The notes under the pieces: model-generated
The model's input: the letters and a program-made list of their open reading frames with translations, nothing else
Told to the model about the DNA's origin: nothing
Databases searched by the model: none
Shown: piece by piece, positions 32,035 to 54,570 of the stretch
Layout of the letters: each line of letters opens with the position of its first letter
How positions within the stretch are numbered: the first letter of the stretch is position 1
Made by a program: the position numbers and the translations under genes
Assembly: GCA_963933835.1 (NCBI GenBank)
Contig: CAWVVV010000004.1
Span: 128,001 to 192,000, forward strand
DNA: 64,000 nt
Direction of reading: 5' to 3'
DNA from: an uncultured Puniceicoccaceae bacterium
GTDB lineage: Bacteria > Verrucomicrobiota > Verrucomicrobiia > Opitutales > Oceanipulchritudinaceae

Positions 32035-33514
32035 CAGATGGAGTTCTCGAGAAGTTTTCAAAACGAGTGAATTCAGGAATAAAGGTAAGTGGTACTTCGC
32101 CCGTCGGGCCGTTACGCTGCTTTGCAATCACGAGCAGACGCTCCCGAGAGGCCTGTGGGACGTTGGGGTTATCCTCAGCCTTGGGATTTGTAGCAAGGAG
32201 GAAAACGACGTCGGCATCCTGCTCGATCGAACCAGATTCACGCAGATCACTGATCCGCGGAAGACGCTTCTCCTTCTCGCTCTCACGATTTAGCTGACTA
32301 AGAACGAGAATTGGGATGTTGAGTTCTTTCGCTAGCCCCTTAATCCCTCGACTGATCTCAGCAATTTGCTGTTCACGGGCAACGCGATTGTCGATGCCGC
32401 TAATCAGTTGGAGGTAATCAATCATTATGAAGCTCAAGGGACGCTTGCGATGTAGACGGCGCGCTTTCGCTCGAAGTTCAAGAATGTTTAAGTTACTTGA
32501 ATCGTCGATGTAAAGGGGTGCCTGTTTGAGCTCCTTGGCCGCCTGTGTTAGCTCGTGCATCTGTTGCTTGCCAATCATGCGATCACGCACGCGTCCCATA
32601 TTAACACGGGATCTTCCGCAAATCATCCGCATAGCAAGCTGATCAGAAGGCATTTCGAGCGAGAAAACGAGGGTCGGAAGCCCATCTCCTTTCAGCGGTC
32701 GGGTGACGTGCTCTGCAATATTCATTGCTAGCGACGTCTTCCCCATCGAAGGGCGCGCAGCTAAAACAATCATTTGTCCTGGGTGCATCCCGAAGGTCAT
32801 CTTGTCGATGTCGACGTAGCCCGTCGGCACGCCTTCATCCGTATCGCCCTGCATGATACGAGCGACCAGACTCATCGCATTATCTACCCCGACCTTGAAT
32901 TCTTGGGTCGACTCGCTGACGCGGTCCTCGTTGATCGCAAGGATCTCTTTTTCGACCGAATCAATGAAGTGCGATAATTTGTCCTGCTGGGTGTAGGCCC
33001 GCTCGACAATGCTCTGTGAAGACTGGATGAGACGCCGCAGCATCCATTTCTCACGAACAATTTCTAACCAATAGGGAGCGTGAGCGGTTCCCTCGATCTG
33101 GCTGTTGATTTCGTTGACGGTACTAACTCCGCCTACGATATCGAGAAGCGTCGCCTCGGTGTTTTGCCTTAAGCGCTTCGCACGGTCGTGGAGCCAAGGA
33201 ATACTGTCGACCGTCCGGCTCCGCAGCTGGTTGAGCACAAGCAGATCATCGATAGCCTTCCCGTTCGTCGCCAGGTCGACCATGACCTGGAAGATGACTT
33301 GGTGAGAGAGGACGGAGAAGGCTTCATTGCGCAGCCGTGACTCCATGCATAGAGTCAACGTCTCCTGCGAGCCTTCGAGCATGCAGGCCGCGAGCAAACC
33401 AGCTTCGGCTCTTTCATCGCAAGGCAGCTCACGGCTGACCGGGCGCGACGAAGTCGACGACCCGCTGACATCACGGGAACCGTTCGGTACGAAATTTGAA
33501 CCTCCTTCTGCCAT
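32027..33514 (-). CDS. dnaB: Replicative DNA helicase
   Basis: LAARPSMGKTS, FSLEM, IDYLQL, LSQLNR, DLRESGSIEQDAD, KQRNGP. Confidence 0.97.
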   Translation of the reverse strand: MAEGGSNFVPNGSRDVSGSSTSSRPVSRELPCDERAEAGLLAACMLEGSQETLTLCMESRLRNEAFSVLSHQVIFQVMVDLATNGKAIDDLLVLNQLRSRTVDSIPWLHDRAKRLRQNTEATLLDIVGGVSTVNEINSQIEGTAHAPYWLEIVREKWMLRRLIQSSQSIVERAYTQQDKLSHFIDSVEKEILAINEDRVSESTQEFKVGVDNAMSLVARIMQGDTDEGVPTGYVDIDKMTFGMHPGQMIVLAARPSMGKTSLAMNIAEHVTRPLKGDGLPTLVFSLEMPSDQLAMRMICGRSRVNMGRVRDRMIGKQQMHELTQAAKELKQAPLYIDDSSNLNILELRAKARRLHRKRPLSFIMIDYLQLISGIDNRVAREQQIAEISRGIKGLAKELNIPILVLSQLNRESEKEKRLPRISDLRESGSIEQDADVVFLLATNPKAEDNPNVPQASRERLLVIAKQRNGPTGEVPLTFIPEFTRFENFSRTPSDV

Positions 33515-36374: not shown

Positions 36375-36449
<75 letters not shown>

Positions 36450-36455
36450 ATTTTT

Positions 36456-36480
36456 AAGCCCCTCTTCTGGGGCTTTTTTT
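36456..36480 (+). terminator. Terminator after tRNA-Asn
   Basis: AAGCCCC-TCTTCT-GGGGCTT followed by a T-run. Confidence 0.75.
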
Positions 36481-36734
36481 GCCTGTATTCGCTGTCTACA
36501 TCCTTGAGAACCCTCAGGATCGTTTCTACATCAGTCAAACACGGGATTTGCAGGCTAGACTGAATAGCCACAACGACAGCGGCCCAAGGAGGGGTAAATA
36601 TACCCGTAAGAATAGCCATGGAAGCTTGTCTGGTCTGAGGAGCATGCAAGTCGGTCCTCGGCTATGCGACGTAAGAGAGCAACAAAGGACTAAAAGTCTT
36701 CCAAGCGTATTTGCAGCGAATTGCTCGCTCAGTA
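36479..36734 (+). pseudogene. Small GIY-YIG nuclease, degraded
   Basis: FAVYILEN...FYISQT.DL..RL..HN...KYTRKN, then frameshift to PWKLVWSEEHASRSSAMRR..K, then premature TAA. Confidence 0.8.
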
Positions 36735-36825
36735 GCTCAGCGGTAGAGTCCCGCCCTGCGGGATTAATCTCTTGGTCTGCCGAAGGTCCCGATTCATCGG
36801 GAGTCGATCCCAGCCTGAGCAGCCA
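36727..36825 (+). pseudogene. Pseudo-tRNA-Asn copy with two palindromic replacements
   Basis: Blocks GCTCAGTAGCTCAGCGGTAGAG, TTAATCTCTTGGTC and TCGATCCCAGCCTGAGCAGCCA are identical to tRNA-Asn; they are separated by TCCCGCCCTGCGGGA and TGCCGAAGGTCCCGATTCATCGGGAG. Confidence 0.9.
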
Positions 36826-36929
36826 ATCTACAAGACATTGGCACTTAATTGAATCCCCTGAAAGATTCTATGCAGGCCCCCAATAAAGTTGCTTGGGGCG
36901 GACGCGCAGAAACGATTGAGTAAGCTCCC

Positions 36930-41586: not shown

Positions 41587-41829
41587 TTAGAGCAGCGCTT
41601 CCTTTTCAGCCTTGGAGAGCTGCTTGATTCGCCACTCCTCTTTGCAGGCTTCTGAGCGCGTCCCGATCACTTGGGTATAGACCAGCACCAGCGGCCCACG
41701 CCCGCGGACATATTTCGCCGCCTTCGGCCCACCCGACTGATGCTCCTCCAGCCGACGCTCAACATCCATCGCCACGCCCGTGTAGAGCGTGCCATCCGCA
41801 CATCGTAAAATATAAACCCTCCACTTCAT
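41587..41829 (-). CDS. Stand-alone GIY-YIG nuclease (UPF0213/YhbQ-like)
   Basis: VYILRCADGTLYTG.A.DVERRL.EH..G...AKY.RGRGP..LVY.....RSEA...E..IK. Confidence 0.92.
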   Translation of the reverse strand: MKWRVYILRCADGTLYTGVAMDVERRLEEHQSGGPKAAKYVRGRGPLVLVYTQVIGTRSEACKEEWRIKQLSKAEKEALL

Positions 41830-41843
41830 TTAAACCAAATATC

Positions 41844-42339
41844 TCACCACAGAGACGCATTCGACAGGCTCATGCCATGACAGTGAAAAAGACTTTAACT
41901 AAAAGAGTAACCACAAAAAGCACAGAAGCCCCCAAAAGCTCATTGCTCAGAATTGTTCACCACAGAGGAAAGAGAGTTACTGTAAGGTTTAACCACTGAT
42001 ATCCACTGATGACCACTGATCTGATCAACTGTTTCTAGATAGTAAACTCATTCGTGGAAAAAACTTACAGAGCAACAAGCATCCGGGGTTATCAGTGTCC
42101 ATCTGTGGTTTATTTCAGATCTTAAGTTCTGTGTCTTCTGTGGTTAAACTAAACAGAACCTAAGTATCCAGAGAGCCTACGCTCCGTGCTCTCTGTGGTT
42201 AAATAAACCAGAGCAACAAGTATTCGCAATATTTGCGTCCATTCGCGGTAAACCTTCCAGAGCCTAAGTCTTGTGCCTTCCCTGGCATGAGCCTGTCGAA
42301 TGAGTGGTTAAACCTTACGGAGCCTAAGCATCCGTGGTC
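41844..42339. repeat. Modular palindromic repeat cluster 1
   Basis: Left units (A/C)ACCAC+mini-tandem; right units mini-tandem+GTGGT joined by ACAGAGCCTAAG-like linkers; 20-bp perfect inverted repeat at 41858-41877 / 42283-42302. Confidence 0.85.
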
Positions 42340-42356
42340 ACTGTATTTAAGTCTTA

Positions 42357-45300
42357 CTACCTCAATCGGACGAGGAGGTCTTTGCTGTCGACTTGGTCGC
42401 CTGGGGCGACTTCGATCAAGTCGACAACGCCGGCTTCGAGGGCGTAAACGGTGGTCTGCATCTTCATTGCTTCGAGGACAGCGAGCTTTTCATTCTTCTT
42501 CACTTGATGCCCTACGGTGACGAAGACACTGCTTACCATCGCGGGGATGGGTGCGCCGACTTCTAAGCGATTGGCTGGATCGGCTTTCGCGCGGCGCTTA
42601 GATTCACTTTTGATCGAGCGGTCTAAGATGACGCATTCGCGTGCCAGACCATTGAGTTCAAAGGTCAAGCTGCGTTCACCATCCTCATTTGGCTCGCTGA
42701 CATAAATGAGTTTTACGATGAGCGTTTTGCCTCGCTGGATTTCAACAGAGATCTCTTCACCTGGTTTAAGACCATAGAAAAAGGCTGGCGTTGGCAGGAT
42801 GCGTGCGGCCCCGAATTTATTCACGAAGTTTACCAGATCCTCAAAGACTTTTGGATACATTAAATAGCTGTAGAGGTCGTCATCATTCATCTCTCGCTTG
42901 AACTTCTTTTCGAGCGTTGCTCTCGTCTCTACGAGGTCGACTTTTTCGGCGCGTGTGCCTGGTCGTCCCTTGAAGGGTTTGCGGTCACCCAGGACTACTT
43001 TCTGAACGGGTTTCGGCCAACCACCTTTCGGCTGTCCGAGTCCACCGGATAGCATATCGACGACGGATTCTGGGAAGGCAGTGCCTGGTTCCAAATTGAC
43101 GAGGTCAGAGGGCTCAACCCCTTTGGTGAGGAGGAACATCGAGAGGTCTCCGACCACTTTACTACTTGGGGTCACCTTAACGATATCCCCGAGAAGAACA
43201 TTCACTTCATGGTAATAGCGAACCACTTCCGGCCAGCGGGCACCGAGCCCGAGTGAACGGGCCTGCTCGCGCAGGTTGGTGTATTGCCCGCCCGGCATTT
43301 CATGGGTGTAGACTTCGGCCGAACCGAATTTCGGAGAGGTGTCAAAAGGACCGTAGTATTGGCGAACGGCTTCCCAGTAAATCGAGAGTTCATTAAAGAA
43401 CTTAAGGTCCAGCTGCGTATCGCGCTTATCTGCTTTGAGCGCATTCACGACCGAATTAAGATTTGGCTGTGAGGTGAGCCCTGACATGGAGGAAATGGCC
43501 AGGTCAACAACATCAACTCCGGCCTCGGCCGCCTTGATCACTGAGGCGCCTGCGATCCCAGATGAATCATGGGTGTGGAAATGGATCGGAATCCCGATTT
43601 CGCTCCGCAATGCTTTGATCAATTTGTAAGCAGCATGAGGGGTGCACAGCCCCGACATATCTTTGAGGGCGAGAACGTGAGCGCCCATTTTTTCGAGTTC
43701 TTTCGCGAGCTCGAGGTAATACTTCAGGGTGTATTTATCACGGGTTTCATCGAGGATGTCTCCAGTGTAGCAGATCGTCGCTTCACAGACCGATTGCGTA
43801 TCCTCGCGTATTGACTGCATCGCTACACGTAGGTTCGGCAGATAGTTGAGCGAATCAAAGACGCGAAAAATATCCATCCCGCTCTCCGCGGAGTGCTTGA
43901 TGAAACCCCGAATCACATTGTCCGGATAGTTGGAGTAACCCACCCCGTTTGCGCCGCGTAGGAGCATCTGAAAACAGACGTTCGGAATCAGTTCCCGCAA
44001 TCGACGCAGGCGCTTGAAGGGATTCTCGTGGAGGAAGCGCATCGTGGTGTCGAAAGTCGCCCCACCCCAGCACTCGACACTGTAGAGGTTGTGTCCACGC
44101 TGCGCGATCGACTCTGCCACCTTGAGCTGATCAAAACTCCGCATCCGCGCCGCGAGCAGAGACTGGTGGGCGTCGCGCATCGTCGTATCAGTGACCAGTA
44201 AGCGTGACTGTTTGCGGGTCCACTGAGCGAACTTCTCGGGACCGTTTTTCGTCAAATAATCTTTTGTGCCGGCGGGGACTTTTGCCTCTCGGTCGAATTC
44301 TGGAACGATGATCGGCAGGTCCATGATCGGCTCAGGGCGCCCCTTGACCTGCGGGTTTCCATTCACGATCGTCTCACCGAGGAGATTGAGAACTTTGGTT
44401 GCTCGGTCACGACGGGGTTTGAAGCTCAAGAGCCCTTTCGTCGTATCGATCAAGGTCGTGGTTGCATTACCGGAATTGAAAATTGGATGCGCTATGACAT
44501 TTTCGATGAATGGAATGTTCGTCTTCACTCCGCGAATACGCATTTCACGCAGGGCGCGATCCATCCGCTGGATAGCGAGCTCGAAGCTACCCGCTGACGC
44601 GGTTAACTTAACGAGGAGGGAATCGTAGAAGGGAGTGATGACCGAGCCAGTGTCCCCCATGGCGCCATCCAAGCGGATTCCAAAGCCAGCTGCGCTTCGA
44701 TAACTGACGATCTTTCCATAGTCCGGGGCAAAGTTCTTTTCCGGATCCTCGGTCGTGATACGCGCCTGGATCGCGTATCCATTTCGGGGAATCTTCGACT
44801 GTTTCGGGATGTTGATTTCCTTGCCGTGTAGGCTGTGCCCTTGAGCGATCAGGAGCTGGCTTCTCACGATATCGATCCCCGTAATGACTTCTGTCACGGT
44901 ATGCTCAACTTGGATACGTGGGTTCATCTCGATGAAGAACCATTCATGGGTATCGAGGTCTAAGAGAAACTCGACCGTGCCGGCATTGTAATACCCGATT
45001 GATTTTGCGATCTTTACCGCTGCCTCGCAGAGGGATGCACGGAGGTCATCGGGTAGGCCGACTGAAGGAGCGATCTCGATGACCTTCTGGTGCCGGCGCT
45101 GAACCGAACAGTCGCGCTCATGCAGGTGGATGACGTTGCCCTTTTTATCACCCAGGATCTGCACCTCAATGTGCTTCGCCCGCTCAACGTAGCGTTCGAG
45201 GAAGACAGCGGAGTTTCCAAAAGCACGTTGCGCTTCCCCTTGGGCCTCTTCGAGGAACGGCTTGAGGTCCTTTGGATCTTTAACCACCCGCATCCCGCGA

Positions 45301-45791
45301 CCACCCCCACCAAAGGCCGCCTTGATGATGAGCGGGAAACCAATCTTCTTTGCGATCTTAAGGGCTTTGTTTGGATCGGCAATAGGGTCCTGAGTGCCGG
45401 GCAAGGTCGGAACGTCCGCTTCATCAGCGATTTTACGCGCTTCGATTTTATCCCCCATCCGGCCAAGAAGATCCGAGCTGGGGCCGACAAAAGTGATTCC
45501 ATTGTTTTCGCAAGCCCTGGCAAAGTCGGCATTCTCGGATAGGAAGCCGTACCCTGGGTGGATCAAATCAACCTGATGCGCTTTTGCGGTCGCGATGACA
45601 CTATCAATGTCCAAATAAGCCGCTACTGGCCCCAGCCCCTCACCGATCAAATACGATTCGTCCGCTTTGAAGCGATGTACCCCGAAGCGATCTTCATTGG
45701 CGTAGATGGCGACCGTTCGGCAACCCATCTCGGTGGCACTACGGAAAATACGAACGGCTATTTCACTACGATTGGCGGCAAGGAGTTTCAC
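42357..45791 (-). CDS. pyc: Pyruvate carboxylase
   Basis: ANRSEIA, HPGYGFLSEN, ERDCSVQRRHQK, RDAHQSL, LKDM, HFHTHD, EAMKM. Confidence 0.97.
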   Translation of the reverse strand: MKLLAANRSEIAVRIFRSATEMGCRTVAIYANEDRFGVHRFKADESYLIGEGLGPVAAYLDIDSVIATAKAHQVDLIHPGYGFLSENADFARACENNGITFVGPSSDLLGRMGDKIEARKIADEADVPTLPGTQDPIADPNKALKIAKKIGFPLIIKAAFGGGGRGMRVVKDPKDLKPFLEEAQGEAQRAFGNSAVFLERYVERAKHIEVQILGDKKGNVIHLHERDCSVQRRHQKVIEIAPSVGLPDDLRASLCEAAVKIAKSIGYYNAGTVEFLLDLDTHEWFFIEMNPRIQVEHTVTEVITGIDIVRSQLLIAQGHSLHGKEINIPKQSKIPRNGYAIQARITTEDPEKNFAPDYGKIVSYRSAAGFGIRLDGAMGDTGSVITPFYDSLLVKLTASAGSFELAIQRMDRALREMRIRGVKTNIPFIENVIAHPIFNSGNATTTLIDTTKGLLSFKPRRDRATKVLNLLGETIVNGNPQVKGRPEPIMDLPIIVPEFDREAKVPAGTKDYLTKNGPEKFAQWTRKQSRLLVTDTTMRDAHQSLLAARMRSFDQLKVAESIAQRGHNLYSVECWGGATFDTTMRFLHENPFKRLRRLRELIPNVCFQMLLRGANGVGYSNYPDNVIRGFIKHSAESGMDIFRVFDSLNYLPNLRVAMQSIREDTQSVCEATICYTGDILDETRDKYTLKYYLELAKELEKMGAHVLALKDMSGLCTPHAAYKLIKALRSEIGIPIHFHTHDSSGIAGASVIKAAEAGVDVVDLAISSMSGLTSQPNLNSVVNALKADKRDTQLDLKFFNELSIYWEAVRQYYGPFDTSPKFGSAEVYTHEMPGGQYTNLREQARSLGLGARWPEVVRYYHEVNVLLGDIVKVTPSSKVVGDLSMFLLTKGVEPSDLVNLEPGTAFPESVVDMLSGGLGQPKGGWPKPVQKVVLGDRKPFKGRPGTRAEKVDLVETRATLEKKFKREMNDDDLYSYLMYPKVFEDLVNFVNKFGAARILPTPAFFYGLKPGEEISVEIQRGKTLIVKLIYVSEPNEDGERSLTFELNGLARECVILDRSIKSESKRRAKADPANRLEVGAPIPAMVSSVFVTVGHQVKKNEKLAVLEAMKMQTTVYALEAGVVDLIEVAPGDQVDSKDLLVRLR

Positions 45792-45896
45792 AATAGGTTA
45801 TGGATAGGCGGGTATGAAGGGATGCAAACTGAATGCTATCGAATAGAATTTTCCAATCCAGTCCAAGTCAACGAACATCACTATCTGCAGGACTGG

Positions 45897-46314
45897 AACC
45901 ACTGTATGCACAGAAGCTCATGCCGAGACAGAGGGAAAGAGACAGAGGGAAAAATAGCTACTGTAAAGTTTAACCACGAATGACACGAATGAGGTTAGAA
46001 GTCTCAAAAGCTCATTGCTCAGAATTGTTCACCACAGAGGCACAGAGGAACACGGGTGAAAGACTGTAACTGTAAAGTTAACCACGGATGGACACAGCTA
46101 AACACGGATCTGATCAACTGAATATCTGTCCACGAATTAACACGAATCAGGTTCAATAGTTACAAAATCTTAAACCACAAAAAAAATAGAGCATACGTAT
46201 CAGTGTTTATTTGTGCCTATTCGTGGACAACACTTACAGAGCCTAAGCTCCGTGCTCTCTGTGTCCTCTGTGGTAAAAAGTCTTACAGAGCCTAAGTCAT
46301 CCGTGTCCATCCGT
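45897..46314. repeat. Modular palindromic repeat cluster 2
   Basis: AACCACGAATGACACGAAT, CACCACAGAGGCACAGAGG, AACCACGGATGGACAC, then ATTCGTGG, CTCTGTGTCCTCTGTGGT, ATCCGTGTCCATCCGT with TTACAGAGCCTAAG linkers. Confidence 0.85.
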
Positions 46315-46503
46315 ATCTACTTCCTGATGCTTCACTTGGCAGTCGTATAGAATGTAGGAGTCGCGGTGGGTGGCGTAGGTTTTGGTTATATCCACAATAT
46401 TTCGGGATGCTAATCTCTGCCTCGTCTCTTTGCGATTTTGGAAGAGTTGGTTTGATCAAGTCTCATAAATACGCATTACTTTTGGGGTTAACCTGAGAAA
46501 TTA

Positions 46504-46887
46504 ATGCACAGTATATTGAGCACGTTCCTACTTTTGGGCGCACTCTCGATCAGTTCCCTGAGCGCAGCCCGTAGTCATCCGGAAAAGTATTACCAAGAGT
46601 CTTACGCTGATAAGATTGGGGGAGAAACAGAGGTTCGCGCCGCTGATGGAACCCGCGTCGATATCTTAACGGATGTGCATGCGATTGAAGTAGACTTTGG
46701 TGACAAGTGGGCAGAGGCCGTTGGGCAAAGCCTCTACTACGCTTTTCAATTCAATCGAAAGGCTGGGATCGTTCTCATCCTTGAGGATGCATCGGATTAC
46801 AAATACCTCATTCGCCTCAACTCCGTGATCGAGCAGTTCGATCTCCCGATCGATGTCTTAGAAATCACGAACTACGACGAAGAGTAA
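46504..46887 (+). CDS. Secreted hypothetical protein with PD-(D/E)XK-like motif pattern
   Basis: Signal peptide, then HPEKYYQ...TE...DGTRVDILT..HAIEVDF..KWAEAVGQSLYYA. Confidence 0.75.
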   Translation: MHSILSTFLLLGALSISSLSAARSHPEKYYQESYADKIGGETEVRAADGTRVDILTDVHAIEVDFGDKWAEAVGQSLYYAFQFNRKAGIVLILEDASDYKYLIRLNSVIEQFDLPIDVLEITNYDEE

Positions 46888-46917
46888 ACGTCCGCGCTAA
46901 GAATAACTGAAGCACAG

Positions 46918-47100
46918 TTTAACCATGCATTCGAGAAGCTCATGCCGGGACAGATGAAAAGACTTCAACTGAAATATCTGTCCACGAATTAGCACGAATC
47001 AGGTTCAATGGTTACAAAATCTTTAACCACAAAAAGAAATAGAGCATACGTATCAGTGTATATTTGTGCCTATTCGTGGACAACACTTACAGAGCCTAAG
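46918..47100. repeat. Modular palindromic repeat cluster 3
   Basis: 46965-47100 is a near-identical direct copy of 46114-46247. Confidence 0.85.
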
Positions 47101-47102
47101 AG

Positions 47103-47807
47103 CTATCCACATTCATCCTTGGATACATCATCACTCTTCACCCGGCAGTAGTAGATCATGTAGGTATCGCGGCGGGCTGCGCCGTAGGCTTTGGTCGGGA
47201 CAGCGTCGTAGATGAGGTCGGAATTTTGGAGGCGTTGCTCGAATTCTTTGTCGCGGCTCGCTGACCAGAAAGCGACGATTCCACCTGGAGCGAGGACCTC
47301 TTTGATCAGGGCAAGACCCGCTGGGGAATAGAGTCGCTGGTTCCCTGCCTGAACCATCGCAGTGGGGCCATTGTCGATATCGAGAAGAATCCCGTCGTAG
47401 CCGTCGGGTGTCGCCTTTGAGAGAAGATCGATGACGTCGCAGGTGTGCATGATGACGCGGGGGTCGTCGAGGAGAGCTCCGTTGAGCTCGCGAAGATGGG
47501 TGCGGTTCCATTCGACAACGGCAGGGAGCAGCTCCGCGACCGTGACGCTACCGATTGCGGGCAGGTCTTTCAGGAGGGCTTTGAGGGTATACCCAAGCCC
47601 GAGTCCACCGACGAGATAGCGCGGCGCTGTAGTCTCTGTGATTTGTGAGGCCACCTTCACCCCCATCTCATACTCTGAGTAGGTGGAGAAGGAATGCATC
47701 AATTCCCGTCCTTCGAGGAGAATCTTGTATTGGCCATCGTGGGCGTAGAGCGTGAGGCTCCCGCCATCGGGTGTGGTCGCTTCGGCCAGTTGTATCCGCG
47801 GTTTCAT
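47103..47807 (-). CDS. Spermidine synthase-like SAM-dependent methyltransferase-fold protein
   Basis: ELM.S....SE, LVGGLGLGYT, AELLP.VVEWNR, ILLDIDNGP. Confidence 0.85.
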   Translation of the reverse strand: MKPRIQLAEATTPDGGSLTLYAHDGQYKILLEGRELMHSFSTYSEYEMGVKVASQITETTAPRYLVGGLGLGYTLKALLKDLPAIGSVTVAELLPAVVEWNRTHLRELNGALLDDPRVIMHTCDVIDLLSKATPDGYDGILLDIDNGPTAMVQAGNQRLYSPAGLALIKEVLAPGGIVAFWSASRDKEFEQRLQNSDLIYDAVPTKAYGAARRDTYMIYYCRVKSDDVSKDECG

Positions 47808-47877
47808 ACGTATAGGTGAGTCGCGTTAACCCAGTGAAGCGACGTAAATCGATGAGGAAATCTAACAACTGCAGCGT

Positions 47878-48437
47878 TTGTCCACGAATAGACACGAATC
47901 TGATTGCTCGGAATAATATCTCACAGAGGCACTGAGACACAGAGGAAGGCTTAAACTGCAAAAATAACCACGGATCTGGTTCAAGGCTTGAAATTCTTTA
48001 ACCACAAAACGCTCAAAAGCTCGTTGCTCTGGATTGTTCACCACAGAGGCACAGAGGAAAGATTAGAACAGCAAAATCAACCCCCTCGAGCAACAAGCAT
48101 TCGTGGACATTCGTGGACAACCCTTACAGAACCTAAGCCCTCCGTGTCCTCTGTATCCTCTGTGGTGAACAAAACCATTACAGAGCGAAAGTCTTTTGTG
48201 CCCTTCTTGTGCCTTCTGTGGTTCCAATCCATACAGAGCCAAAGCATCCGTAGTAATTCGTGTCCATTAGTGGACCCTTCTTACAGATCCATAGTCATCC
48301 ATAGTAATAAAATCATCTCTTAAATCTCCGTGCTCTCCGTGTCTCTCCAGGCATGAGCCTGCCGAATGCGCTCATCCGTGGTCAAAAGAACAGAGCCAAA
48401 GCTTTCGCACACATTCGTGTCCATTCGCGGTAAACCT
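47878..48437. repeat. Modular palindromic repeat cluster 4
   Basis: TCCACGAATAGACACGAAT, TCACAGAGGCACTGAGACACAGAG, CACCACAGAGGCACAGAGG, then about 6 reverse units with ACAGA(G/A)CC(T/A)AAG linkers. Confidence 0.85.
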
Positions 48438-48534
48438 TCATGAGTCCTGTCTTGATCCTGTGCTCATCGTCGTCAGAGTGAGCGGCGTCTCATGATTCTG
48501 ATTCTCCGACGCATCCCTTTTCCTTCCACCCGAC

Positions 48535-48816
48535 TCACTCCATCTCCTCGACCGCTTTTTCAACGGCGTCCTCGTAGCCAGCGTTAATGCGGATGAAGAG
48601 TTCTTGGAGGCCTTTAGCTGACTGCATGACGGCTTTGATCCCACCGGGCTGGCGACGTTGAATTTTGACTGACCCGGTGCGGTTCGTCCGACCAAGGGAT
48701 TTCCCGCCGTAGGAGCGCCCGATGATCGTGCCGACGACGCCTTCGAGGGCCTCGATCTTTTTCAAGACCACGAGGCATTCCTTGGAAGTGCTTTGATGTC
48801 GACCGCGCAAAGGCAT
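48535..48816 (-). CDS. Small basic hypothetical protein (DUF2103-like)
   Basis: GRHQST...IIG......VKIQ....GGIK......GLQELFI; sole gene between clusters 4 and 5. Confidence 0.65.
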   Translation of the reverse strand: MPLRGRHQSTSKECLVVLKKIEALEGVVGTIIGRSYGGKSLGRTNRTGSVKIQRRQPGGIKAVMQSAKGLQELFIRINAGYEDAVEKAVEEME

Positions 48817-48890
48817 GAGCGCTTAGAGGACCCTCACTCCTCAGGAGAGGCAAACACGAAAGCTCGCAGCGCATCATATGGACTGGAATG

Positions 48891-49287
48891 TTAACCACAA
48901 ATACATGCATTCGACAGGCTCATGCCAGGACGGACCTGATCATCTGTTGAAAAACTTCACCACGAATGGACACGAATTAGCACGAATCTGCTCAACAGAA
49001 AGAGTGATCTAACCAAAAAAGCACAAACACCTTGGCTCAGTGATATTCACCACAGAGGGCACAGAGGAAAACGGAGAACAGTTAAGGACTGATTGCATCC
49101 TGTTCATCCTGTCAGAAAAACAGAGACTAAGCATTCGTGCTATTCGTGGTTAAACCTTACAGAGCGATAAACCAGTTCATTGGTTTTCAGTTAAACAGTT
49201 TTCAGACCCCCAAGCCCCTCCGCCTGACAGAGCCTAAGCATTCGCGAACATTCGTGTTCATTCTCGGTAAACCCAACAGAGCCTAAA
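48891..49287. repeat. Modular palindromic repeat cluster 5
   Basis: CACCACGAATGGACACGAATTAGCACGAAT, CACCACAGAGGGCACAGAGG, then ATTCGTGCTATTCGTGGTT and ATTCGCGAACATTCGTGTTCATTCTCGGT with ACAGAGCCTAA linkers. Confidence 0.85.
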
Positions 49288-49327
49288 CCGTCATCCGCGT
49301 CTATATATTGTTCTACAAATGCTCTAT

Positions 49328-49987
49328 CTAAAAGCCATCATAGCTTTGGGCTTGGAGCGCGAACTTTTGGAGCTCACTGACGGTTTCTCTAACGGCTTCG
49401 CCGATGGAATCATGCTGAGTAATATCCGAAATCCGGGCCTTTGTCTGCTCGAGCTCGGCGTGACTGAACATGAGGTTACCCAGCTCACAGACGTCGACGA
49501 GGGCGATGAGGACGGATTCTTCACGCGTGGGCTTACTCGACGCGTCGAGGATGATACGTCGCAGTCGTTTGAGCACGGCAAGCTCTTCTGAGAGGTCAAG
49601 GGTCTCATAATGTTGCGAGTGGAATACCCAGAGGATGTCCTCATCATCCTTACGTAGAATCTTGTGATAAACGAGACGATCAAGGATCTGCCTTCGAAAC
49701 CGATCCGCATTTGCAGCGAGGTGCGTGATCAAGTTCTGGAGACTGGGTCGCACCATACCGCACAGGTTTGAAAGGGCCTCGAGGAGTTCCTCTTCTTCTG
49801 GTGGGTTCACGCCCGGCGCGATATCGATCTCGTTAACCCCAAGTGAGATCAGTTCATGGTGTATAAGCTCGGCGATGAGGGCCCCTGCGAGGGCATGATC
49901 AAAAGCCTGTTCGGGCATCTTGCGAAACTTGACCGTCTGATCATCAAGGCCGAGGAGTATAAGAGATTCTGTGACGTTTAGCTTTAT
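49328..49987 (-). CDS. GPP34/GOLPH3 family protein; expected start codon reads ATA
   Basis: In-frame extension (ATA)KLNVTESLILLGLDD precedes ALAGALIAEL...LWVF...Y. Confidence 0.7.
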   Translation of the reverse strand: MKLNVTESLILLGLDDQTVKFRKMPEQAFDHALAGALIAELIHHELISLGVNEIDIAPGVNPPEEEELLEALSNLCGMVRPSLQNLITHLAANADRFRRQILDRLVYHKILRKDDEDILWVFHSQHYETLDLSEELAVLKRLRRIILDASSKPTREESVLIALVDVCELGNLMFSHAELEQTKARISDITQHDSIGEAVRETVSELQKFALQAQSYDGF

Positions 49988-50132
49988 TCTTTACAATGGC
50001 TAAAGCTGAGCTTCACGGCAAGTCATATGATCCCTTAGATTACGCTATTAGAGCCCCTATAGTCTACTATTCGAATAGTTTATTCCTGACTCTATTGATC
50101 ACCTCTAATGAAGGCGTTCCAAAAACCTCTCG

Positions 50133-50962
50133 CTAACCCTCACGCTGCACTTGGCGGATAAGATTCTCGATGTATCCATTATCACCTGACAACACATGGT
50201 TCTCTTTGATCTCCCATGGGCGCCCCGTCATGTCCATCAGGCGTTCATAAATCTTTCTTTTGACTCGTTTCCAGCTGGCTTTGGTCGTTTCGGTTTTTTG
50301 ACGTTTAAGAATCATACGTCTACCCGGGTGGCTAAAAAGGGTTCAGGCGGAAGGTGCGGGACGACGTCTTTTTCATTCATGACTCGATGGTGAGGGCCCT
50401 TGCCCTGTGTCATCATCTCATGATCAAGAGCGGTCGCGAGGGCGTCATCTCCGGGTCGTGGACTGGCGAAAGTATAGATTCCATAGACAGTGTATCCGGC
50501 CTCAAACATCATCGCAGCGTAGAGGGAACATAAGGCACCTCCGAGACTGTGACCCGTAACCCAAATGCGCTGCTCGTTGTCGTTCATATGATCGATACTG
50601 TTGGTTACTTGAATGACCGAAGGAAAGAGTGCGTCCTGAAAGCCTTCGTGCGTTTTCGTGAGCGGGCCTGGGTCATGGACAGCTTGGAAATTGGCAAACC
50701 AGTCATTGACGTCATCTGAACCTCTAAAGACGACAACGATGTCCTGCTCATTGCCAGCAATGAAGCACTGCGTATCAATGTCTTTAGCCTTACGCACGTT
50801 AATGAAGTCGCAGCTGTCGAAGCCGAGCTGTTTTGCCCCGGCTTTTATGGCAGAGCCATTTCTATACGCTAGGTCGCAGAGGACGGCCATGGACAGAGCT
50901 GTTTTTGCGTCATAGCGCTTTGTGCGCCTGAGGCCTGTATAGTGTTCCAAATATTCGCTCAT
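50133..50962 (-). pseudogene. Lipase class 3, frameshifted near the C-terminus
   Basis: VVFRGSD..DW, H.GF, VTGHSLGGAL, TFASPR.G, D.VPHLPP; one T short in the run at 50334-50338 (restored reading PFFSHPGRRMIL). Confidence 0.7.
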
Positions 50963-51184
50963 GATGAATTCCAGTTTGAAGTGGGACGGCCTGGGAGCCA
51001 TTGGCGGCTAGGCGCATTCATAGAGAACAATCCCTCCCAATATGTCTACGCTTATATGGTTAGTTCTGCTCAGAAAACCGGTCTGCACGACAACGCGGCT
51101 AGTCTTGGAGTTAACTCGCTGAGGAGCAAAAAAGACTTAGCGACGCGCCTTGCGCCGAGCGCAGAATGGCTCAAGCCTTCGGTC

Positions 51185-51835
51185 ATGAAAATCAAGACGG
51201 CACGTTTTCAGACCAGTGTTGCGGCGTATGATGAGTGTCCCAAGGCCTCGCGGCCGGAGTTCGCTTTCGTCGGTCGGTCGAATGTGGGGAAGTCCTCCCT
51301 GATCAACATGCTGACAAACAAGAAGGAGCTCGCGAAAACATCGGGGGTGCCGGGTAAAACACAGCAGATAAATTTCTTCGATATCGACGCTCGCTGGCAT
51401 CTCGTCGATTTGCCGGGCTACGGCTTTGCGAAGGTCTCGAAGGCACAGCAGGAGCAGTTCAATATCCATGTGAGCGCCTACCTGACGCAGCGCGAAACGC
51501 TCAATCAAGTCTTCGCCCTCGTCGATTCCCGGATTGAACCACAAAAGAACGATTACGAATTCATCGCATGGCTGGAAGAATGCGAAGTCCCCTACTCGAT
51601 TGTTTTCACGAAGACGGACAAGAGCTCGGAAGGTCAGGTACAGCACCACATCGGGCTCTTCCAAGAGGGGCTAAAGGAGCGAAATCTAGAACCCACGATG
51701 ACTTTTAAGTGCTCGGCTAAAACTGATCGCGGCCGCGGCCCAATCCTCAACTTCATCGAAGGCAAGCTACCGAAGAAGCCTAAGGCTTCGAAGTCTGTGC
51801 CAACGATGAACCTGTCATGGATGAAGAAGAAATAG
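51185..51835 (+). CDS. engB: Ribosome biogenesis GTPase YihA/YsxC
   Basis: GRSNVGKSS, PGKT, DLPGYG, TK.DK; ATG at 51185. Confidence 0.93.
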   Translation: MKIKTARFQTSVAAYDECPKASRPEFAFVGRSNVGKSSLINMLTNKKELAKTSGVPGKTQQINFFDIDARWHLVDLPGYGFAKVSKAQQEQFNIHVSAYLTQRETLNQVFALVDSRIEPQKNDYEFIAWLEECEVPYSIVFTKTDKSSEGQVQHHIGLFQEGLKERNLEPTMTFKCSAKTDRGRGPILNFIEGKLPKKPKASKSVPTMNLSWMKKK

Positions 51836-51860
51836 GCGTCATTTTTACCTGCGTGCGTTT

Positions 51861-53072
51861 ATGAGTGATCCAACGAAAACGACCCGTCTCCGCATCGACC
51901 TATTTCCGCGGGCGATCAAGGCGATCCGAAGTGGTCACCCATGGATCTACCGGGATAGCATCAAAAGCCAAAACCGCGACGGCGATATTGGCGAATTGGC
52001 GATCATGTATGACAGCAAGAATCGCTTTCTTGCGGTGGGGCTCTACGACCCCAGCTCACCCTTTCGCGTCCGCATTCTCCACCATGGCAAAGCGGCTACG
52101 ATCAATCGAGAATGGTGGCTGGAGAAGGCAACGGCCTGTCGTGAGTTGCGTGACAAAGAAGTCTTCAGCTCTGAAACGAATGGCGCCCGCTGCATCAACG
52201 GCGAAAGCGAAGGCTTTCCTGGCATCGTGGTTGATCGCTATGCAGATACGCTCGTGGTTAAGCTCTATTCTGCCTCATGGCTGCCACATTGGGAAGAGAT
52301 CGAGTCCGTTTTTCGTGAAGTCTTTGCGCCGCGTTTTCTCGTTCTGCGTCTGAGCCGAAACATTCAGCCAATTGCGGCAAAGCGATGGAAACTCAAAGAA
52401 GGCTTTTGTGGTGATGCGGGCGAGGACATGGTTATCTTTAAAGAAAACGCCCTTTGCTTCGAAGCCGCTGTCCGCGAAGGCCAGAAGACAGGATTTTTCC
52501 TCGATCAACGCGATAATCGAGCCCGTGTCGAGAAACTGAGTAAAGGTCGTGCAGTGCTGAATGTCTTTAGCTTCTCCGGTGGGTTCTCACTCTACGCCGC
52601 TCGAGGGGGCGCAAAAAGCGTGACTGATCTCGACATTAGCGCGCACGCTTTAGCAAGTGCGAAGCGGAACTTCGCGCTCAACGCCGCCGAGGCGCCCATC
52701 TCGAATGCTTCCTATGAACAAGTGCAGGCAGATGCCTTCGCTTGGATCGAAACAGCAGAGGAAAAATTCGATCTCATCATTCTCGATCCCCCTTCGCTCG
52801 CAAAACGTGAAAAAGAACGGGAGCGCGCCATCCAAGCTTACAAGGGCTTGAACAAGCGAGCCATGCAGATGCTTCACCCAGGCGGCATCCTCGTCACAGC
52901 CTCATGCTCAGCGCATGTTAGCGCAAAGGAGTTCCTCCTTCTTGTCCGTCAATCAGGCAACAACAGCGGACGCAGATGGAAAGAAAAGTGGACGAGCGGA
53001 CACGCAGTGGACCATCCGGCGGGCTTTCCTGAAGCGCAGTATCTGAAAGCGATCTGCATGGAGTTCAGTTAG
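51861..53072 (+). CDS. RlmI-family SAM-dependent rRNA methyltransferase
   Basis: GHPWIY, GESEG.PG..VD.Y, GQKTGFFLDQR.NR, DPPS, SCS. Confidence 0.85.
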   Translation: MSDPTKTTRLRIDLFPRAIKAIRSGHPWIYRDSIKSQNRDGDIGELAIMYDSKNRFLAVGLYDPSSPFRVRILHHGKAATINREWWLEKATACRELRDKEVFSSETNGARCINGESEGFPGIVVDRYADTLVVKLYSASWLPHWEEIESVFREVFAPRFLVLRLSRNIQPIAAKRWKLKEGFCGDAGEDMVIFKENALCFEAAVREGQKTGFFLDQRDNRARVEKLSKGRAVLNVFSFSGGFSLYAARGGAKSVTDLDISAHALASAKRNFALNAAEAPISNASYEQVQADAFAWIETAEEKFDLIILDPPSLAKREKERERAIQAYKGLNKRAMQMLHPGGILVTASCSAHVSAKEFLLLVRQSGNNSGRRWKEKWTSGHAVDHPAGFPEAQYLKAICMEFS

Positions 53073-53132
53073 AGGGTAAGGTGCCCCTGAATCTCATTGC
53101 ACTACCCTAGCTAAAACGATCAATCTAAGTTC

Positions 53133-53727
53133 ATGTTTGGTCACGCTATGCTCTCTCAGCGTATTGCCCTCCTCACTGCAATTTCCCTACTTTACCTAGC
53201 TAACTTCCCACTCCGAGCAATCGACAAAGTTCGAGTCGAGACCCGGGTGGATGAGGCAATTGAGGCTTTTGATGTCGATGGAGAAGGCGTTATTGTCGCC
53301 CTCCTAGACCGCGGCATAGGTTGGCAAATAATGACATCCGGAATGAGGATGGCACGACGCGGATTAAATACATTTTCGACCTCAGTGACGCTACGGGCGC
53401 AAATGCCGCAGAGAACCCCTATGGTGCTGGCACGATATACACAGAAGACCAAATCAACGCGGCACTGAATTCTGGGAATCTCCTAGCCCACCGCGACGCG
53501 GTTGGCCATGGAACGACGACTGCGGGCATCCCAACGGGCAATGGGCGAACCTCGAGCAATCGCAAATACCGTGGCATTGCACCCAAGGCATCCATTATCG
53601 CAGTTAAAGTCACCTCTGATGGAGCTCCGGCTCACGACAACCAACCTGCTGAAGCATCGTTCTTCAACTCCGCATTCATACCCATCGCGATTCAGTTCGT
53701 CGCAGATAAGGCCGCAGAATTAGGAAG
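53133..53727 (+). pseudogene. S8 subtilase (Csp-like) N-terminal remnant
   Basis: VALLDRGI (Asp) and DAVGHGTTTAG (His); frameshift near 53325; truncated before the catalytic Ser at the cvfB stop. Confidence 0.75.
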
Positions 53728-54570
53728 TTACTTCGAGAGGCGAATGCCGCCTTCTTTTGGGAACTCAATTTTGCGTTCCTTGTAGAGCGTAGAAAGCGTT
53801 CGCTTGAAAACCTTTTTGCTCACGTTGAAAGCTTTGCGAATGAGCTCTGGTGAGCTCGAATCGTCGTAGGGAAGATCCCCGTCCTGCTCCTTCAGCGCAG
53901 CGAGGATGCTTTCACTCAAGCCACGGATCGGCGGCGGCCCAGAGGGATCGAGACTTAAGTCGATCTTCCCATCCGGACGCACAGTACGAACGTATCCATT
54001 AATCACTTCACCAACTTTGAGGCTCGTCCCAAGATCGCTATGATAGACGAGCCCACTGTAGCGCTCTTCGACAATCGCATTGTAGCCGAGTGGCGTCCGA
54101 TGCGTGATGAGGAACTTCACTGGCTGTGAGTCGGTGTAGTGTGGCCGCCCTTCGGATAGGAAGCGCTGCCACTTCGTCGTCGCTACGATGCGCTGAGTGA
54201 GGGTGTCGAGTTTGACATAGACGACAACACATTCTCCCACCTCGACAAGGACTTCACCCTGCTCACGATAAGGCAAAAGTAGATCTTTCCCAAGACCCCA
54301 GTCTAGAAATGCACCAATCTGCTCATGCACATCGACCACGGTCAGAGCAGCAAATTGACCCACGACGGCGTGCGGACGCTCGGTCGTCGCGATGAGACGA
54401 TCTTCCGAATCATTATAGAGAAAGACCTCAAGGTCATCGTCTTCAATTGTGCCCTGTGGAGCCAGTTTACCAGGAAGCAAAATATCCCCGAGATCCTCCC
54501 CATCGAGGTAAAAGCCACTCCCTGTTTCCCGCAAAACTGTGAGGATATTATACTTACCTATCTCCGCCAT
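53728..54570 (-). CDS. CvfB-like S1 RNA-binding protein
   Basis: FLY.DSEDR.IAT, GAFLDWGL.KDLL.P..EQ, R.DGKIDLSL, SKK.FKR....LYK. Confidence 0.88.
   Translation of the reverse strand: MAEIGKYNILTVLRETGSGFYLDGEDLGDILLPGKLAPQGTIEDDDLEVFLYNDSEDRLIATTERPHAVVGQFAALTVVDVHEQIGAFLDWGLGKDLLLPYREQGEVLVEVGECVVVYVKLDTLTQRIVATTKWQRFLSEGRPHYTDSQPVKFLITHRTPLGYNAIVEERYSGLVYHSDLGTSLKVGEVINGYVRTVRPDGKIDLSLDPSGPPPIRGLSESILAALKEQDGDLPYDDSSSPELIRKAFNVSKKVFKRTLSTLYKERKIEFPKEGGIRLSK

Follow-up and report, generated by a model that had tools for sequence, protein, structure and literature searches.

The subject of this analysis is a group of five repeat arrays in the genome of an uncultured marine verrucomicrobial bacterium (G000; a 1.94-Mb assembly in 10 contigs, 97% complete). 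The window, meaning the whole stretch of 64,000 nucleotides that was analysed, comprises positions 128001-192000 of contig C4, and the sequencing runs that contain it are mostly marine metagenomes. The arrays fill consecutive intergenic gaps as mosaics of 180-570 bp and are separated by single genes (Table 1). They are composed of words whose 7-nt cores repeat with a period of 9-10 nt. The word classes carry labels of our own, based on these cores: S (CACAGAG), T (CACGGAT), E (CACGAAT), A (CACAAAA), B (CACGAAG), C (CGCAGAT) and D (ACAGGAT). A 20-nt word is called G, and two linkers are called J and K, the latter being ACAGAGCCYAAGC.

Table 1. Arrays, repeats, genes and skew switch of the window (positions counted from its first nucleotide)
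Feature	Position	Strand	Description
Array 1	41844..42339	+	Left arm S, G, A, S, T plus linker J; right arm E, T, A, S, E', A+G, T modules with K between
Array 2	45890..46314	+	Left arm A, G, S, E, S, T, J, E, A; right arm T/E, K, S, K, T
Array 3	46918..47100	+	G, E, A, then T/E, K; largely a direct copy of part of array 2
Array 4	47866..48437	+	Left arm E, S, T, A, S; right arm E, S, A, T/E, S+G, T, E' modules with K between
Array 5	48891..49287	+	Left arm A, G, E, A, S; right arm D, K, E, K, E', K
36-bp block	41933..41968	+	Identical to 46005-46040
134-bp direct repeat, copy 1	46114..46247	+	92-94% identical over two gap-free blocks; brackets the 46504-46887 gene
134-bp direct repeat, copy 2	46966..47100	+	
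Type example of linker K	46236..46248	+	With the following S module: 7-bp stem (one mismatch), 4-nt loop; pairing read from sequence
GIY-YIG gene	41587..41829	-	80 aa; PF01541, E-value 2.4e-15; outside the arms, its start 15 bp away from array 1
Pyruvate carboxylase gene	42357..45791	-	Between arrays 1 and 2; close orthologue in 5/40 relatives
127-aa gene	46504..46887	+	Between the 134-bp direct repeats; 1/40 relatives
Spermidine-synthase-like S-adenosylmethionine-dependent transferase gene	47103..47807	-	Between arrays 3 and 4; 5/40 relatives
93-aa hypothetical gene	48535..48816	-	Between arrays 4 and 5; 2/40 relatives
Cumulative GC skew maximum of C4	29727		Terminus-like switch; weak, mixed skew on both sides, arrays included

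The five arrays are real. The common grammar that a first-pass annotation of this DNA had described is present in all five gaps, the left arms come before the right arms in 5/5 arrays, and the 36-bp identity that it had reported between two of them is confirmed. Its claim that such clusters occur nowhere else in the window also stands, the only double-word matches outside the arrays being two in coding DNA that are read as chance. Over the whole of G000, 13 clusters contain at least eight word or linker tokens, against a maximum of five in the locally shuffled genome. The proposed complementarity of the arms was recovered when the arrays were folded as DNA on both strands (20 shuffles each): z-scores for arrays 1-5 were -7.5/-6.7, -3.9/-6.7, -2.7/-4.1, -3.7/-6.3 and -1.9/-3.4, compared with -0.4 to +1.6 for four control stretches. 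Three arrays outside the window gave values between -1.0 and -2.3.

Linker K is the constant part of this grammar. With at most one mismatch, all 12 copies in the window lie on the plus strand and inside the five arrays. Allowing two mismatches yields 15 copies on the plus strand (14 of them in arrays) and two on the minus strand (one in array 1, one at 33403), and allowing three yields 18 copies within the arrays, where successive copies are spaced by 49-60 bp in 8/13 within-array intervals. The scan of the whole genome for linker and words that the first-pass annotation had proposed found eight further K-joined arrays on C1, C2, C3 and C4, making 13 in all; the arrays are not special to the window. 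From 43 copies in G000 the consensus of K is ACAGAGCC(T/C/A)AAGC, and 44 copies in G061, an Opitutales assembly of another family (the same genome as G195; 87% complete), give nearly the same sequence, so that K is conserved across two families, with 3-4 variable positions. Right arms alternate as K-module-K-module and frequently end in K; left arms are joined otherwise, by J, and their modules are fewer than those of the right arms. One array contains two near-identical 40-bp units in tandem. Several word classes are mixed within single arrays, and the arrays of G000 have no common termini. K and the S word have ACAGAG in common, and because K closes a short hairpin when it precedes an S module, it may descend from the tip of an S doublet.

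The words of the arrays recur around a family of small genes. G000 has seven genes matching PF13366, the one checked being TIGR04256 GxxExxY; in the available text of one source, PF13366 is described as a PD-(D/E)XK-family protein of unknown function (PMC3424549). All seven (7/7) lie between inverted arms of two or three words each, of classes S, B, E, E', B, T or C, and each is placed directly after the stop of the upstream gene. Most GxxExxY genes in G001, G008 and G035 are wrapped in like manner. The link with GxxExxY genes that the first-pass annotation had offered is borne out by these cases. None of the genes found in G000 has arms of class A or D; A-class genes are present in G001. Judged by their words, the arrays consist of the same inverted arms as wrap small GxxExxY genes elsewhere in G000, heaped up without a gene. 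In a tree of 21 proteins, C-class proteins group with C-class proteins (95/92) and A-class with A-class (100/99), and E-class proteins appear in two places; word class follows protein clade in part. Across 61 genomes, in which kin are not independent and the genes' own arms are included in the matches, the number of GxxExxY genes correlates with the number of module matches (Spearman 0.69), and at least five module matches occur in 25/34 genomes with a GxxExxY gene versus 4/27 without one.

Other gene families appear to have contributed as well. Two four-helix-bundle genes in G000 carry inverted wrappers of other words, and pieces similar to these wrappers occur within or next to four of the arrays outside the window. 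To the eye, the G word is like a repeat upstream of two GIY-YIG genes in G002. It is certain that the arrays hold the ends of one gene family, and they probably hold the ends of three. On C1 and C2 of G000 there are also about 10 empty doublets of the TTCATCATTCATCATT-type arm, which is the arm that wraps the four-helix-bundle gene at C1:432573. At two loci of G008 (L148 and L153, on C58 and C154), GxxExxY genes stand inside tandem arrays whose units, doublets of 180-200 bp, contain K-like linkers.

Three observations on GxxExxY genes weigh against the explanation favoured below. The four of 27 genomes that lack such a gene and still pass the threshold have 12-29 module matches. G061, the richest genome in arrays, has no PF13366 match in its 87% complete assembly. 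Finally, two sites carry GxxExxY genes in both G000 and G001, one of them with a changed word class; from these shared sites and from their orientation, which is that of the upstream gene, the genes as such appear to be settled.

K is polarised by replication, not by transcription. The guanine-cytosine (GC) skew of G000 switches at about 250 kb of C2 and about 158 kb of C4, and the S10 gene lies on the G-rich strand, so that the C-rich strand is the lagging one by the usual rule. Counting the window copies, K beside a module lies on the C-rich strand in 31/31 cases and J in 9/9; away from modules K is split 7:4, and word modules overall are split 62:59 by strand. The eight arrays outside the window represent six separate loci in zones of clear skew, and K is on the C-rich strand in all of them. 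Its orientation reverses at C4:75.8 kb, where the plus strand is the G-rich one. No such regularity exists with respect to flanking transcription, along which K points at three arrays and against which it points at three, with four arrays between convergent and three between divergent genes. The first-pass annotation was correct that all window clusters have one polarity regardless of gene strand; what it missed is that the polarity follows the direction of replication and not just the plus strand. Neither a dif-like site nor a DnaA-box cluster that would place the terminus or origin of G000 was found convincingly with the motifs used. An open reading frame (ORF) at G000:C4:126354-127787, which looks like dnaA by its N-terminus, ends 213 bp before the window. 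This dnaA-like ORF lies about 30 kb from the terminus-like skew maximum and away from the skew minimum on C2.

G061 provides a second genome with the same polarity. A scan for K with a module, using one genome per species, returned 35 loci, 28 of them from G061, and there K is on the C-rich strand at 28/28 loci; the third-position skew of genes on either strand mostly shows replicational skew. On the C-rich strand of 237.6 kb of G061, all 94 modules are oriented as in right arms and none as in left arms. The arrays of this genome are one-armed and non-palindromic, and a long hairpin is therefore not required. Sites chosen without reference to K (the first 30 of 165 E-module matches, corresponding to 20 places on 14 contigs) agree in 20/20 cases, and at these places the T-rich arm is on the A-rich strand, i.e., against the local AT skew. 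Two contigs have opposed pairs among the 100 places listed. An array in G025 (L272, C4 at about 220.2 kb) is likewise one-armed, with mixed S, B and related left words and no K; these words are on the G-rich strand, which is the polarity of G061.

Some of the data speak against a general polarity. The skew of C4 is weak or mixed between 110 and 182 kb, and five consecutive genes at 175-182 kb call the plus strand leading; the window arrays thus lie in a zone of ambiguous skew and are not firm evidence for polarity. G008 agrees at 4/7 stretches with K, its three misses being weakly skewed and one of them carrying K on both strands (three further stretches examined had no K). Among the seven K-plus-module loci outside G061, four carry K on the C-rich strand. 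Solo modules in G025, G056 and G057 are few and weakly skewed, and one in G025 disagrees. T-class modules showed no trend with skew in G001, G008, G035 and G089.

The arrays also share blocks of 36-228 bp with one another. When 153 pairs of arrays are ranked by similarity, the top three are all pairs of neighbours (chance probability among the 78 pairs of K arrays, 2.6e-4). They are arrays 2 and 3, with 134 bp on either side of the 127-aa gene (score 114, the highest of the 153); a pair on C3 with a 228-bp direct duplication, including about 75 bp of non-array DNA, around a gene of the rhodanese family; and a further pair on C3, separated by 3 kb. It counts against the explanation favoured below that the other three neighbour pairs are not unusually similar. 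In 13 relatives neither a helicase nor a kinase gene lies within 1.5 kb of the rhodanese-family gene, and these relatives are too distant to decide the ancestral order on C3.

The distribution of the arrays is narrow. The exact K-module junction of G000 is absent from 60 relatives, and a looser K-plus-module pattern occurs in 5/301 genomes of the order (7 matches in G000, 43 in G195, 2 in G008, and 1 each in G089 and G103), for which a control with the reversed pattern gave 3 matches in total over the 301 genomes. In two genomes of the same genus K with a module was not found. None of 13 orthologous loci of enclosed or adjacent genes in relatives has a cluster of at least four tokens, which indicates that the arrays arrived in the G000 lineage. 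Contigs from runs of three other studies (X3, X4, X8), where these cover the region, cross the arrays with 0-1 differences, and three metagenome loci (L018-L020) are 100% identical to G000. Against an ongoing process, no gain or loss of units was seen among the contigs of the three studies or L018-L020, which sample a near-clonal population.

The same annotation had viewed the arrays as possible cassette or recombination sites that partition single genes. The enclosed genes lend such a system no support. In order along the window they are oriented -, +, - and -. Array-flanked genes were considered as specially mobile cargo, and this was rejected, given that an unflanked gene nearby is equally patchy (0/40 relatives) and the gene after the C3 pair is found in 0/24. 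The only cassette-like signs are the two single genes within direct duplications of 134 and 228 bp. Excision of the 46504-46887 gene was likewise rejected: a depth-2 contig of run X4 that skips 46207-47061 runs through 40 shared bases, X4 also has contigs with the gene, and the junction is taken as an assembly join. The GIY-YIG gene beside array 1 is a neighbour, not an enclosed gene.

The 127-aa protein matched no Pfam or NCBIfam family. It has a hydrophobic N-terminal leader and an R-x-D...I-E-V-D...G-Q-x-L-x-Y pattern, by which it looks, to the eye, like a PD-(D/E)XK nuclease. Paralogues are present at G000:C7:3-155 and C7:3150-3504 (frameshifted), three homologues occur in G035, and the corresponding Atlas clusters are unnamed; the nearest named Atlas cluster is XisH at 0.78, under threshold. 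A profile comparison with GxxExxY gave 4.6%, no solved structure matched, and a single-sequence fold had a predicted local distance difference test score (pLDDT) of 42. Elsewhere in the window, 36375-36886 contains tRNA-Asn followed by a frameshifted GIY-YIG fragment and a degenerate second tRNA copy; GIY-YIG genes also stand behind tRNAs at G000:C4:12341 and in G061. In G001 (C61; L029) the spermidine-synthase-like gene is directly behind an S1-domain gene. The two are 6 kb apart in G000 (window 47103-54570), so this zone has undergone rearrangement.

Y1 transposases, which include the RAYT proteins associated with repetitive extragenic palindromic (REP) sequences, gave no candidate in G000 (PF01797; genome 97% complete), and a RAYT was accordingly rejected as the mobiliser. 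Two tyrosine recombinases (PF00589) are encoded on C1 and C5 by ORFs of 313 and 322 aa, and are read as XerC and XerD by size alone. G000 has five GIY-YIG matches, one of them adjoining array 1, and G061 has one Y1 gene. IS110-type recombinases, reverse transcriptases and cas genes were outside the enzyme search of G000 and G061. Together with the mixed gene orientation and the equal patchiness of the unflanked gene, the lack of a Y1 transposase and the remoteness of the two tyrosine recombinases leave the proposed cassette system without support. G008 presents a very large expansion of Y1-type transposases: 137 PF01797 matches lie on many contigs (L096-L104, L249-L268), and most belong to a single family whose members are about 340 aa long, are nearly identical at the N-terminus and vary in their promoter spacers. 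Of 19 such genes examined, three have K-like words within this variable spacer, at 79 bp upstream, and these were dismissed as chance.

The best explanation of the arrays is that they are non-autonomous piles of cassette ends. How the ends accumulated is less certain. The mechanism we favour, to which we give slightly less than even credence, is that K-plus-arm blocks are copied in a fork-coupled process, which a wrapper-associated nuclease would start and host repair would complete, by analogy with IS200/IS605 elements. In the available sections of two sources, the enzymes of these elements, which are related to RAYT, are described as using single-strand, lagging-side chemistry and the lagging-strand template (PMC6006769, PMC3971601). 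The unit of spread would be the K-plus-arm block. GxxExxY, or another wrapper-associated nuclease, would recognise its cognate words folded on single-stranded fork DNA and nick there, an activity that is predicted. Template switching or RecA-type recombination with another array could then copy blocks in, K and the words serving as microhomology. Exposure of the substrate on a single side of the fork would give the product one orientation per replichore. Occasional duplication of a block on both sides of a gene would give a cassette-like look as a by-product. A wider version is doubtful: cassette ends of three unrelated small-gene families (GxxExxY nuclease, four-helix bundle, GIY-YIG) would be gathered on a single conserved linker and join intergenic arrays in an orientation fixed relative to the fork, without Y1 transposase or integrase, and the arrays would then seed gene-sized duplications or insertions near the terminus.

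An alternative is that K forms the core of a site-specific recombination site, at which circles of K plus module integrate serially, as in integron sites and the dRS3 proposal, with the genes between arrays movable in the same way. The K-X-K-X-K layout of right arms, often K-ended, the tandem 40-bp units, the conservation of K between two families and the single genes within the 134- and 228-bp direct repeats would all suit such a site, and in the portion of the literature at hand attC sites offer a precedent for dependence on the replication strand (PMC5371416). However, K varies at 3-4 positions, the ends of shared blocks fall at no fixed place in it, and the enclosed genes have both orientations. 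As for an enzyme, the two tyrosine recombinases of G000 are on other contigs and there is no Y1 transposase, IS110-type recombinases and reverse transcriptases lying beyond the search. We consider this alternative unlikely.

Nested insertion, the growth mode put forward in the first-pass annotation, would place complete empty elements one inside another, so that the arms become concentric and fold into one long hairpin. The order of left and right arms in all five arrays, the mirror order of classes in array 1 (4/5) and array 4 (5/5), and folding z-scores down to -7.5 are as expected from it. Nevertheless, among nine arrays parsed by hand the mirror-order score of 22 barely exceeds the shuffled mean of 19.3 (P ~0.05), and the same-order score, 20, is nearly as high. 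Right modules outnumber left ones and use another linker, three arrays outside the window fold at only -1.0 to -2.3, and those of G061 have no left arm. The arrays do fold, but nesting as their origin is distinctly unlikely.

It is also quite improbable that the arrays are polar DNA signals kept by the host, such as sites for fork, translocase or repair factors, or a structured RNA, whatever their origin. Their orientation follows the replichores, and the window arrays, five of the 13 K-carrying arrays of G000, are crowded into 7.5 kb in the terminus zone. Contigs of an RNA run (X9) match three other arrays at loose ends, where DNA carry-over is possible. Unlike scattered polar motifs, however, the arrays are confined to intergenic clusters, and the occurrence of K with a module in so few genomes of the order, and in neither of the two of the same genus, speaks against a host signal. 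An Rfam scan of 34-52 kb of the window returned tRNA only, and there was no excess of promoter-like (2 sites; shuffle mean 6.8) or terminator-like sites (8; shuffle mean 8.3).

The arrays might instead be inert relics, i.e., decayed palindromic wrappers whose polarity stems from strand-biased mutation or deletion, with K as a worn S-class left word. The ACAGAG common to K and S, the many degenerate modules and the absence of observed present-day change accord with decay. But G061 retains the T-rich arm on the strand rich in A and C, contrary to the skew, blocks that are identical or 92-94% identical indicate recent copying, and decay would not place one linker between modules of different classes, making relics very improbable. 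An assembly artefact of a repeat-rich, 10-contig metagenome-assembled genome, such as the low-depth X4 contig that joins arrays 2 and 3 through their 40 shared bases, is almost certainly not the explanation, as contigs of three studies cross the array-gene borders with 0-1 differences, L018-L020 are identical, and other genomes have the same grammar.

The arrays resemble several known systems, from which they differ in defining traits. Their suggested nature as a self-spreading repeat akin to REP and bacterial interspersed mosaic elements (BIMEs), with interchangeable word classes, is supported. As far as the accessible text of two papers goes, in REP, BIME and REPIN (REP doublet) systems with their RAYT (TnpA-REP), and in TIRtrons, extragenic inverted doublets or mosaics match the arms of a resident, apparently settled gene (PMC3733652, PMC6006769). 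Several repeat classes per genome, and many doublets and mosaic clusters, are also found here. In contrast to REP and REPIN as covered there, the units of G000, read from sequence with no dedicated scan for the tag, are tandem 7-nt words whose only pairing is with the opposite arm, rather than self-complementary stem-loops of 20-40 bp that carry a GTAG/CGTC tetranucleotide tag. The partner gene is of the PD-(D/E)XK family, not an HUH/Y1 transposase, and arms of different gene families share one polarised linker. Neisseria intergenic mosaic elements (NIMEs; dRS3/RS), as outlined in the consulted part of their description, flank genes as intergenic arrays, a short constant element taking turns in them with many module families; they are proposed there to promote recombination and gene insertion, and reported only in Neisseria (PMC1797815). 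However, dRS3 is given in that part as a symmetric 20-bp inverted repeat, whereas K is asymmetric, strand-polarised and of another consensus (PMC1797815); the modules here trace to nuclease-gene arms, and there is no recombinase candidate. Integron cassette arrays, in the portion of one account available, likewise have repeats between single genes, a single orientation and dependence on the replication strand (PMC5371416). Here no integrase gene is nearby (an IntI-specific signature was not scored on the two PF00589 genes), the enclosed genes run both ways and include a 3.4-kb core-metabolism gene, and the repeats are 180-570-bp mosaics. Clustered regularly interspaced short palindromic repeats (CRISPR) have a constant repeat and unique spacers, whereas the "spacers" here are themselves repeat families; cas genes were not searched for. 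The literature examined, with subscription papers mostly outside its coverage, contained no paper linking GxxExxY genes to such repeats; the figures and supplements of PMC3733652 (terminal inverted repeat sequences, Figure 9) and PMC6006769 could hold some of the words.

The arrays represent a variant of the REP/BIME-like mosaics that is linked to a nuclease family as yet uncharacterised; the new features are a common linker, mixed word classes and polarity by replichore. Together they point to an undescribed, replication-coupled copying of repeats rather than a gene-cassette system. GxxExxY (PF13366/TIGR04256) is a very common family of small nucleases without a known job, present in 34/61 genomes here. 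If the favoured mechanism is true, a fork-polarised, linker-based spread of arms would represent a second enzyme class behind REP/BIME-like repeats, and would explain the source of NIME-like mosaics outside Neisseria and of long flanking duplications of accessory genes.

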